Positions 58,483-60,180 of a stretch of 64,000 nt of DNA are shown here, one piece after another. Both the position numbers and the translations under genes were made by a program. Origin of the DNA: a virus (taxonomy: Duplodnaviria; Heunggongvirae; Uroviricota; Caudoviricetes). Below the pieces are notes generated by a model. That model was not told where the DNA came from and did no database searches. It saw only the letters and a list, made by a program, of their open reading frames with translations. The stretch's first letter is position 1. Each line of letters starts with the position of its first letter. The stretch lies in IMG/VR virus record IMGVR_UViG_2880378312_000006. One strand, given 5' to 3'.

Positions 58483-59796
58483 ATGGCAGTAAAGATTTCA
58501 GGTGTACTGAAAGACGGCACAGGAAAACCGGTAGAGAACTGCACCATTCAACTGAAAGCCAGACGTAACAGCGCCACGGTGGTGGTGAACACGGTGGCCT
58601 CTGAAAATCCGGATGAAGCCGGTCGTTACAGCATGGACGTTGAGTACGGTCAGTACAGCGTTATTCTGTTGGTGGAAGGGTTCCCGCCGTCACATGCCGG
58701 GACCATCACCGTGTATGAAGATTCTCAACCGGGGACGCTGAATGATTTTCTCGGTGCCATGTCGGAGGATGACGTCCGGCCGGAGGCACTGCGCCGTTTT
58801 GAACTGATGGTGGAAGAAGCGGCGCGTCACGCTGAGGAGGCGAAGAAGAATGCCGGAGAGGCGGAGACGTCCGCGAGGAATGCCGGCATATCAGCCAGTC
58901 AGGCAGAAGAGAGCGCGGCAAATGCTGACACTTCAGCAGGGGATGCATCGGAGTCAGCCCGGCAGGCGGCAGAAAGTGCAGCCGCTGCAAAGCAGTCAGA
59001 GGAGGCGTCCTCGTCCTCGGCCTCTGCGGCCGCTCAAAAAGCCAGTGAGTCATTACAAAGTGCAACAGATGCTGAGTTGTCAAAAAAGACGGCAGAAAGT
59101 GCAGCCGGTAATGCAGCCAGGGATGCAACGACCGCAGCAGAAAAAGCCCGGGAGTCAGCAGAAAGCGCACAGTCAGCGGAACAAAGCAGGATAGCGGCGG
59201 AAGAAGCCGTAAACAGAATCCCCACCGTGGTGGGACCTCCCGGGCCAAAGGGGGAACAGGAGCCCGCGGGTCCTCAGGGGCCGAAGGGAGATAAAGGAGA
59301 GCGTGGAGACACCGGCCCTGTCGGGGCAACCGGTGAACGGGGACCGGCAGGTGATGCTGGTCCGGCAGGCCCGCAGGGGCCGAAAGGTGACAGGGGAGAG
59401 CGGGGAGAGACCGGTCTGACGGGAAATGCAGGTCCACAGGGTCCAAAGGGAGATACCGGTGCGGCAGGCCCGGCAGGCCCACAGGGACCGAAAGGAGAAA
59501 CAGGTGCGACTGGCCCGGTGGGGGCAACCGGACCTCAGGGACCGAAGGGCGACCCGGGGGAGACACAAATCCGTTTTCGTCTGGGGCCGGGAAACATTAT
59601 TGAGACAAACAGCAATGGCTGGTTCCCGGATACAGATGGCGCACTCATCACCGGACTGACCTTTCTTGCCCCCAAAGATGCCACACGGGTTCAGGTTTTT
59701 TTTCAGCATTTGCAGGTCAGGTTTGGTGACGGGCCGTGGCAGGATGTTAAGGGGCTGGATGAAGTGGGCAGTGATACAGGCAGAACAGGAGAATGA
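58483..59796 (+). CDS. stf: Side tail fibre protein with lambda Stf-like N-terminus and collagen-like Gly-X-Y repeat region, 437 aa
   Basis: N-terminus [30 protein letters not shown] matches lambda Stf; long GPxGxxG tracts at about 59225-59560; ATG at 58483. Confidence 0.9.
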
Positions 59797-59797
59797 C

Positions 59798-60067
59798 ATG
59801 AACATACTAAAAAAACTTATGCAGCGTCTGTGTGGTTGCGGAAAGCATGATGACCGTGAACACGGGGAGTTACTTACAGCACAGCTGCGACTGGGGCCGG
59901 CAGACATCCTGGAGTCAGATGAGAATGGTATTATCCCGGAGCAGGACAGGGTAATCACGCAGGTGGTGATACTGGATGCGGATAAAAAGCAGATACAGTG
60001 TGTGGTAAGACCGCTGCAAATCCTGCGTGCTGACGGGACGTGGGAAAATATTGGCGGGATGAAATAG
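59798..60067 (+). CDS. Small conserved protein downstream of the tail fibre (89 aa), second copy
   Basis: ATG 1 nt after the stf stop; near-identical to 990-1259. Confidence 0.55.
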   Translation: MNILKKLMQRLCGCGKHDDREHGELLTAQLRLGPADILESDENGIIPEQDRVITQVVILDADKKQIQCVVRPLQILRADGTWENIGGMK

Positions 60068-60180
60068 CCGACAGCTTCACAAAAACCGGAGTCCGGCTCC
60101 GGTTTTTTGTTGTCACGTATGGGGGATGTTTGTTACAGCTATTTAAGTCTGGAGTTCAAATTAAAATAGGGAGCTTTGTT

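Follow-up and report, generated by a model that had tools for sequence, protein, structure and literature searches.

Why does the same stretch of collagen-coding DNA, in the same orientation, stand near both ends of a 64,000-nt window of phage DNA (the whole stretch analysed here)? An earlier note on this sequence had seen in it a 1.3-kb direct repeat of a tail-fibre tip module, whose two copies would be substrates for recombination that excises or inverts the 58 kb between them. A discrete duplicated module is not borne out: what we find instead is colinear homology between whole prophages, and the repeat is the window-truncated end of the paralogy between two lambdoid prophages, one of Sp9 type and one of Sp11 type.

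The repeat itself is genuine. A repeat search and alignments by BLAST and MAFFT (BLAST E = 0) pair positions 1-1300 (copy A) with 58809-60110 (copy B) in direct orientation. The earlier note had called the two ends near-identical and had asked for their pairwise alignment; run here, it verified the repeat and corrected only the start of copy B, which lies at 58809, one base after the 58808 that had been given, the end at 60110 being right. Over the 1.3 kb the copies differ at 41 places (96.9%, about 97% identity), comprising 38 substitutions, all within the ungapped coding part (1-1259), and three one-base indels, all in the 3' intergenic/terminator part. Past position 1300, a weaker homology runs on through an nleG homologue to 1949/60759, with 86, 63, 75 and 89% identity per 100 nt (range 63-89%), and the extended alignment including this homologue reaches 90.9% over 1960 columns. 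It is only the edge of the window that makes the repeat look 1.3 kb long, since in the source genome the homology also goes on upstream of position 1.

Both window ends match E. coli O157:H7-type chromosomes at 100%, and strain 113 (NZ_CP028680.1) has the identical sequence over positions 14001-64000 and 1-5000. The side that carries copy A corresponds to the right arm of Sakai prophage Sp9 (99.8-99.9% identity), whose order is the fibre ECs_1808, the small ORF ECs_1809, the nleG2-1 pseudogene, nleA, and an effector/IS island reaching to an ompW 3' fragment. Its features in the window are:

1..988, plus strand: C-terminus of the copy A fibre, 328 codons, cut by the window start (from the ORF list and the annotation of identical DNA in FRIK2455 and strain 113)
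990..1259, plus strand: copy A 89-aa ORF consisting of a PfC domain only, orthologue of Sakai ECs_1809 (Pfam PF06820, E = 4.7e-36)
1274..1298, plus strand: copy A terminator-like hairpin and U-run (RNA fold -20 kcal/mol, z = -3.5)
1372..1946, plus strand: frameshifted nleG pseudogene of nleG2-1 type (RefSeq annotation of identical DNA; Sakai ECs_1811), in which the repeat continues in diverged form (63-89% identity to 60181-60756)
2286..3611, minus strand: nleA/espI effector gene, a marker of the Sp9 right arm, without counterpart beside copy B
14624..14749, plus strand: ompW 3' fragment, the right attachment junction of Sp9 (annotation)

The copy A fibre is of Sp9 type and EPclA type, orthologous to ECs_1808 and 99.9% identical to Sakai Sp9, and by triplet count it has 37 uninterrupted Gly-X-Y triplets followed by the PfC tip; its N-terminus lies outside the window and is present in the source genome. 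Because the ompW fragment directly precedes the integrase of a second prophage, whereas in Sakai yciE comes after the same fragment, the Sp9-type prophage and this second one (prophage 2) stand in tandem. The copy B side of prophage 2 is 98.7-99.5% identical to the right arm of Sakai Sp11, which runs ECs_2159/2158, ECs_2157, nleG2-3/6-2/5-2, a dinI-like gene and ydfJ'. Prophage 2 also carries J and lom upstream of its fibre, and the lambdoid right-arm order of J, lom, side tail fibre, small ORF, type III effectors (T3SS) and attachment junction is present here:

14795..15925, minus strand: integrase of ompW type, at the left end of the prophage with copy B (annotation)
34472..36714, plus strand: lysis/antirepressor block of prophage 2, holding the longest exact runs shared with the Sp9-type prophage (prophage 1) upstream of the window
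54272..57751, plus strand: tail-tip protein gpJ of prophage 2
57819..58418, plus strand: lom of prophage 2 (Ail/Lom outer-membrane protein)
58483..59796, plus strand: copy B side tail fibre, complete, 437 aa, collagen-like, PfN-PCoil-Col-PfC (Pfam PF08400, PF01391 and PF06820; annotation)
59798..60067, plus strand: copy B 89-aa PfC-only ORF, orthologue of ECs_2157 (Pfam Phage_fiber_C, E = 5.3e-36)
60081..60107, plus strand: copy B terminator-like hairpin (RNA fold -20.9 kcal/mol, z = -4.5)
60181..62181, plus strand: three intact NleG-family effector genes, of nleG2-3, nleG6-2 and nleG5-2 types (three matches to Pfam PF06416; Sakai ECs_2156-2154), the clustered effector morons of the prophage 2 right end
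62343..62585, minus strand: dinI-like gene at the right end of prophage 2
62717..64000, plus strand: ydfJ', an MFS transporter gene lacking its N-terminal part, where the Sp11-type prophage meets the chromosome

A scan of the whole window against Rfam returned only sok, STnc100, DicF and two tRNAs, all of them inside prophage 2, and no match in or beside the repeat.

In strain 113, the 45 kb that precede the window hold a full lambdoid prophage, colinear with prophage 2. The two are 92% identical in L/K/I, 88% in J, 88% in lom, 91-97% from the fibre N-terminus onward and 96.9% in a 6.2-kb lysis/late-regulation block, while their head and tail-shaft modules are unrelated. Colinear homology thus covers about 9 kb of tail genes and 6 kb of lysis genes at the same spacing of 58.1-59.1 kb. 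The chromosomal setting differs from that in Sakai, where Sp9 (plus strand, at ompW) and Sp11 (minus strand, at ydfJ) are inverted and lie about 360 kb apart; in strains 113 and FRIK2455 these ends are in direct orientation with about 58 kb between them, and there the Sp11-type right arm is attached to a left arm with an ompW-type integrase. Compared with the inverted arrangement of Sakai, the direct orientation seen here is the product of an earlier prophage-mediated rearrangement.

What the repeat contains had been described correctly, namely the C-terminus of a collagen-like fibre, a small downstream gene and a terminator, except that the last is a hairpin that is only terminator-like. The copy B fibre is the positional orthologue of Sakai Sp11 ECs_2159/2158, which is broken (frameshifted) in Sakai. 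Its PfN domain (PF08400) spans residues 1-133 (E = 8.7e-69), and residues 1-93 match PDB chain 9e7m_Ta, a 'tail fiber protein' (E = 4e-52). An Ala/Glu/Ser-rich segment that can be aligned across the paralogues occupies the position of the predicted PCoil (residues ~135-250); the Col region follows (Pfam Collagen, E = 7e-17), with 36 of 37 triplets intact and Glu at the Gly position of triplet 4, and PfC (PF06820) covers residues 363-426 (E = 3.5e-35). The PfC-only ORF starts one base after the fibre, has no other Pfam domain and is 34% identical to the fibre's own PfC tip (BLASTP E = 3e-13); a PDB sequence search with it gave no meaningful match, and we found no published study of it in the literature. 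The hairpins of both copies lead into the U-run UUUUUGUUGU, and that of copy B has an extra A in the 5' A-run and an extra T in the 3' T-run, which add one A-U pair to the stem. A scan for consensus terminators gave no site in either copy; from the folds, transcription would be predicted to end there.

The differences between the copies had been said to lie in two places, the tip domain and one collagen triplet. All the peptide strings quoted for them are correct, including TTRVQGFF versus ATRVQVFF and GEPGPAG versus GEQEPAG. At the nucleotide level the changes are spread over Col, PfC and the small ORF (3.2-4.4 per 100 nt); what stands of the claim is that amino-acid changes are somewhat enriched in the PfC tip, whose 75 codons hold 6 of the 13. 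The pattern does have real heterogeneity, in that a run of 297 nt at 110-406 is free of differences (P = 0.0007 under uniform placement). Between copies A and B, dN/dS is 0.08 in the coil (PCoil), 0.21 in Col, 0.46 in PfC, where the counts are small (six non-synonymous and four synonymous changes), and 0.10 in the small ORF.

The interrupted triplet lies within GEQEPAG, fibre codons 257-263 at 59251-59271, and its central feature is:

59260..59262, plus strand: GAG codon of Glu260, at the Gly position of Gly-X-Y triplet 4 of 37, next to the coil-collagen junction

Glu at a Gly position is thus real, as had been noticed; its novelty is smaller than it had seemed. GEQGPAG is a common allele in an alignment with Sakai-related, O111, O127 and other O157 fibres, so that Glu260 is a single GGG>GAG substitution on this background and not a two-base novelty; the two-base difference from copy A is made up of an old Pro/Gln polymorphism and GGG>GAG. 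The tip variants AS/GN, H/N, G/D and T/A likewise recur in other paralogues, in different combinations. The family is large: a 60-mer from the collagen start occurs at a median of eight places per genome in the 704 genomes carrying it, and 376 deposited phage genomes contain the module of fibre, small ORF and hairpin, among them VT1-Sakai and those of many Stx1a/Stx2a-converting phages. The Glu allele is also present in a third fibre, in the btsS-side prophage of strain 130, which has copy B as well, at 100%; in strain F8492 the orthologous btsS-side fibre reads GEQGPAG. We found no published account of the allele, or of its presence in two paralogues.

Do such copies recombine? The earlier note had proposed the repeats as a substrate for homologous recombination, and this is upheld. 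We typed the 69 sites at which the full-length copies A and B differ. The ydfJ-side fibre of FRIK2455 is of type B at 24 consecutive sites (58486-58686), of type A at the next 25 (58731-59643) and again of type B at 19 of the last 20; its patch of about 0.9 kb has the sequence of the copy A fibre that lies about 58 kb upstream in that genome. Such a copy A patch shows what, from the site pattern, appears to be gene conversion. Copy B and the btsS-side fibre of strain 130 agree at all 38 sites in 58486-59334, Glu included, and the positional orthologue in Sakai Sp11 is A-type over the same interval. The simplest reading of the Glu allele in two fibres would be one mutation, then conversion between the two prophages, in either direction. 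Typing J, lom and the fibre together (675 sites) revealed kilobase-scale A/B mosaics in STEC799 and strain 142.

The proposal that the 58 kb would be excised or inverted stands in part. Direct repeats can lead to deletion or duplication of the DNA between them (here 58.8 kb), never to its inversion; excision is possible in principle, and inversion is impossible. The fibre repeat is also not the best substrate that the two prophages offer: its longest identical run, the 297 nt mentioned above, ranks eighth among the exact runs common to the pair, and the lysis/antirepressor block, with exact shared runs of 1348 and 880 nt, is a better one. We built a synthetic deletion junction in which an Sp9-type J-lom-fibre is joined within the 297-nt run to copy B, the three nleG genes and ydfJ', and compared it with 5,426 E. 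coli genomes. None matched it in one place at 99% or more, the best single-place match being 98.7% at 96% coverage. The two best matches, STEC799 and strain 142, were considered as deletion products and rejected, each being a J-lom-fibre mosaic within a prophage that has retained head genes of its own. In this collection no clean deletion with its crossover in the fibre repeat came to light, by a test that is blind to crossovers further upstream, for instance in the lysis block. Switching by invertible segments of the Gin/Cin/Pin kind, by a shufflon or by a DGR was rejected as well: the copies are direct, 58.8 kb apart and in separate prophages, the repeat search found no inverted repeat of at least 60 nt within the window, and no invertase or RT gene is annotated beside either fibre.

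The repeat is very probably explained by two lambdoid prophage right ends whose multi-copy EPclA-type fibres exchange patches by recombination. The window holds the last 2 kb of an Sp9-type prophage with nleA, the effector/IS island of that prophage, and a complete second lambdoid prophage abutting ydfJ', both prophages ending alike in gpJ, lom, an EPclA fibre, the 89-aa PfC-only ORF, the hairpin and NleG morons. The differences between the copies are standing alleles of a family with about eight copies per O157-type genome. Gene conversion and homologous recombination of RecA type would shuffle these alleles among the resident prophages and so leave the patchy identity described above. The Glu allele is carried by a sublineage, in two prophage fibres of the same genome. 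Both the recombination mechanism and the tolerance of the Gly-to-Glu interruption are what we infer from these patterns.

Three other explanations were weighed against this one. The earlier note had held that its account would fall if the differences were sequencing or assembly errors, and collagen-coding DNA does invite such doubt, being internally repetitive (internal BLAST matches) and, in other strains, variable in length, with a deletion of about 91 nt that shifts the frame. That the differences, or the duplication itself, arose in this way has almost no chance of being right. The exact GEQEPAG 60-mer is present in 50 of 704 genomes, which are complete, come from several laboratories and include FRIK944, TX 376-2 and strains 113-140; the exact ATRVQVFF 60-mer is present in 312, including an O103 strain; at least 15 assemblies agree at 100% over the entire 6.2-kb copy B region, and the same holds for the copy A region; and the flanks of the copies differ (nleA on one side, the three nleG genes and ydfJ' on the other). 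Error is refuted as far as public assemblies show, and the differences are real alleles. We also regard it as highly improbable that Col-PfC, the small ORF and the terminator were recently duplicated or transposed as a 1.3-kb unit. Identity does peak in this segment (97%) and falls to 88% in lom and J and to 63-89% in nleG, as it would in a recently homogenised patch, but the tail and lysis genes are colinear at the same spacing, each copy belongs to a separate prophage that has an integrase and attachment remnants of its own, no transposase flanks the segment and inverted repeats of at least 60 nt are absent from the window; gene conversion within paralogues that were already in place accounts better for the high identity.

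More can be said for selection, in which the tip differences would reflect positive diversifying selection on receptor binding and the Gly-to-Glu change an adaptive hinge. The tip has 6 of the 13 amino-acid changes and the highest dN/dS, the same tip positions are polymorphic among the paralogues in many combinations, and the Glu allele persists in 50 genomes and two paralogues. We still hold this to be unlikely: dN/dS is below 1 in every segment and rests on tiny counts, all the tip variants are pre-existing alleles, the Glu allele is a minority one (50 of 704 genomes), and relaxed constraint is no less plausible, many O157 prophages being defective (PMC2669165).

On the reading that we prefer, recombination between resident prophages, the repeat is real but ordinary, a known kind of feature in a well-studied genome: multi-copy collagen-like fibres of EHEC prophages, their allelic mosaicism, and O157:H7 deletions and inversions driven by prophage repeats have all been published. 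What the locus adds is (i) the 0.9-kb patch, apparently a clean example of gene conversion between Sp9-type and Sp11-type fibres; (ii) a case in which the orientation of the prophage ends, direct here and inverted in Sakai, would decide between deletion of the effectors nleA, espM1 and nleG and inversion of the terminus region; and (iii) a natural Gly-to-Glu allele, a possible test case for the tolerance of interruptions in bacterial collagen. A bolder proposal, which we offer as a rather doubtful speculation, is that the Col-PfC tip and the PfC-only ORF form a cassette homogenised and reshuffled by conversion among some 8-12 resident fibres, the pool of defective prophages being the store from which the few inducible phages draw receptor-binding tips; Glu might then be no defect but a tolerated or useful hinge at the coil-collagen junction, and the PfC-only protein a partner of the tip, such as an assembly factor or a tip cap.

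Several known systems resemble what is seen here. With stf-tfa of phage lambda the fibre has in common the family of its N-terminal attachment domain (PF08400), its place after J and lom, and a small ORF that follows it; here, in contrast, the shaft is collagen-like and the downstream ORF is a PfC paralogue of the tip and not, by Pfam, of the Tfa family. The closer relative is EPclA, described from work that included a Sakai copy as a trimeric dumbbell of PfN, PCoil, Col and PfC, in which Col is a true collagen triple helix, PfC is a trimerisation module and the collagen melting transition was reported at 42 degC (Ghosh et al. 2012, PMC3368898). By its domains the fibre can be placed in this class of collagen-like EHEC prophage proteins: EPclA proteins such as Sakai ECs2717 and ECs1808 have the same PF08400 PfN, Ala/Glu-rich coil, Gly-X-Y run and PF06820 PfC, the same 437-aa length class and the same place behind lom, and their copies differ by allelic substitutions of the same sort, which have been called 'common substitutions' (PMC3368898). 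Copy B departs from them by one Gly-to-Glu interruption, at the fourth of its 37 triplets; a pattern of interruptions has been published for sequences with two Col domains, and it differs in sequence from that of copy B.

As to rearrangement, recombination between prophages has been described in Sakai (PMC2669165), and in O157:H7 a 47.7-kb deletion between two adjacent prophages arose through an 822-bp direct repeat in an antirepressor gene, and a 1.15-Mb inversion through a 174-bp inverted repeat (PMC7430833). These events concern the same organism, the same class of substrate (repeats common to lambdoid prophages) and the same antirepressor/lysis block; for the present pair, by contrast, we find conversion patches and, among the genomes searched, no deletion product with its crossover in the fibre repeat. 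Finally, the right arms of Sakai Sp9 and Sp11 have the same gene order and the same effector loci as ours (nleA; nleG2-3/6-2/5-2). Unlike in Sakai, nleH1-2 and nleF are deleted here and the Sp11 fibre is intact, and the two ends are direct, as they are in FRIK2455, the Sp11-type right arm being attached to a second integrase of ompW type.

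The collagen-like side tail fibre carried at the right ends of both prophages is followed in each case by an 89-aa ORF made up of a stand-alone PfC domain preceded by a 27-aa leader with Cys and His residues, which reads CGHGKH versus CGCGKH between the copies:

59798-60067, PfC-only small ORF
990-1259, PfC-only small ORF

For these two window copies dN/dS is 0.10. A PDB sequence search with the small ORF found no relative, and in the literature we found no function reported for it. The FRIK2455 annotation gives the PfC-only ORF neighbouring the fibre on the ydfJ side a frameshift (7916-8180 of the FRIK2455 locus L013), so not every strain has the small ORF intact. 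The fibre itself varies in length: the Sakai Sp11 fibre is broken into ECs_2159 and the pseudogene ECs_2158 (6239-7460 of the Sakai locus L012) because of a deletion of ~91 nt within the collagen repeats, whose counterpart in the window is 59378-59461, and other fibre copies include in-frame collagen length variants of 389 aa and 407 aa.

The Sp9 effector island has lost ~1.67 kb relative to Sakai Sp9, with nleH1-2 and most of nleF absent at the 5198/5199 junction. The sole residue of this stretch is:

5200-5310, 111-nt 'type III effector' remnant, adjoining an IS256-family fragment

The repeat search also returned a 142-nt direct repeat (77%; 3987-4128 versus 5992-6133), the copies of which flank the region of the island containing the integrase pseudogene and the IS256 fragment. 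Another direct repeat from this search, of 108 nt (79%; 14011-14118 versus 62265-62372), lies near both prophage right ends. Since the copy at 62265-62372 overlaps the 3' end of a dinI-like gene, that at 14011-14118 is probably a dinI-like remnant closing the Sp9 island.

The RNA genes matched by Rfam inside the second prophage are ordinary lambdoid prophage cargo:

19301-19352, minus strand, DicF
26562-26736, plus strand, sok antitoxin RNA
31030-31279, plus strand, two tRNAs
32052-32224, plus strand, STnc100 sRNA

This second prophage begins directly at the end of the first:

14624-15925, ompW 3' fragment followed directly by the second prophage, which has an ompW-type integrase

Its right arm is adjoined by ydfJ', and the left-end neighbour of the upstream prophage is ompW in FRIK2455 and ynfA in strain 113 (comparison loci L001 and L003). 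Taken together, these arrangements imply that nested prophage-mediated rearrangements have occurred between the ompW and ydfJ loci, differing among strains. In Sakai, the Sp9-terminal ompW 3' fragment is followed by yciE, whereas in the window the second prophage occupies that position.
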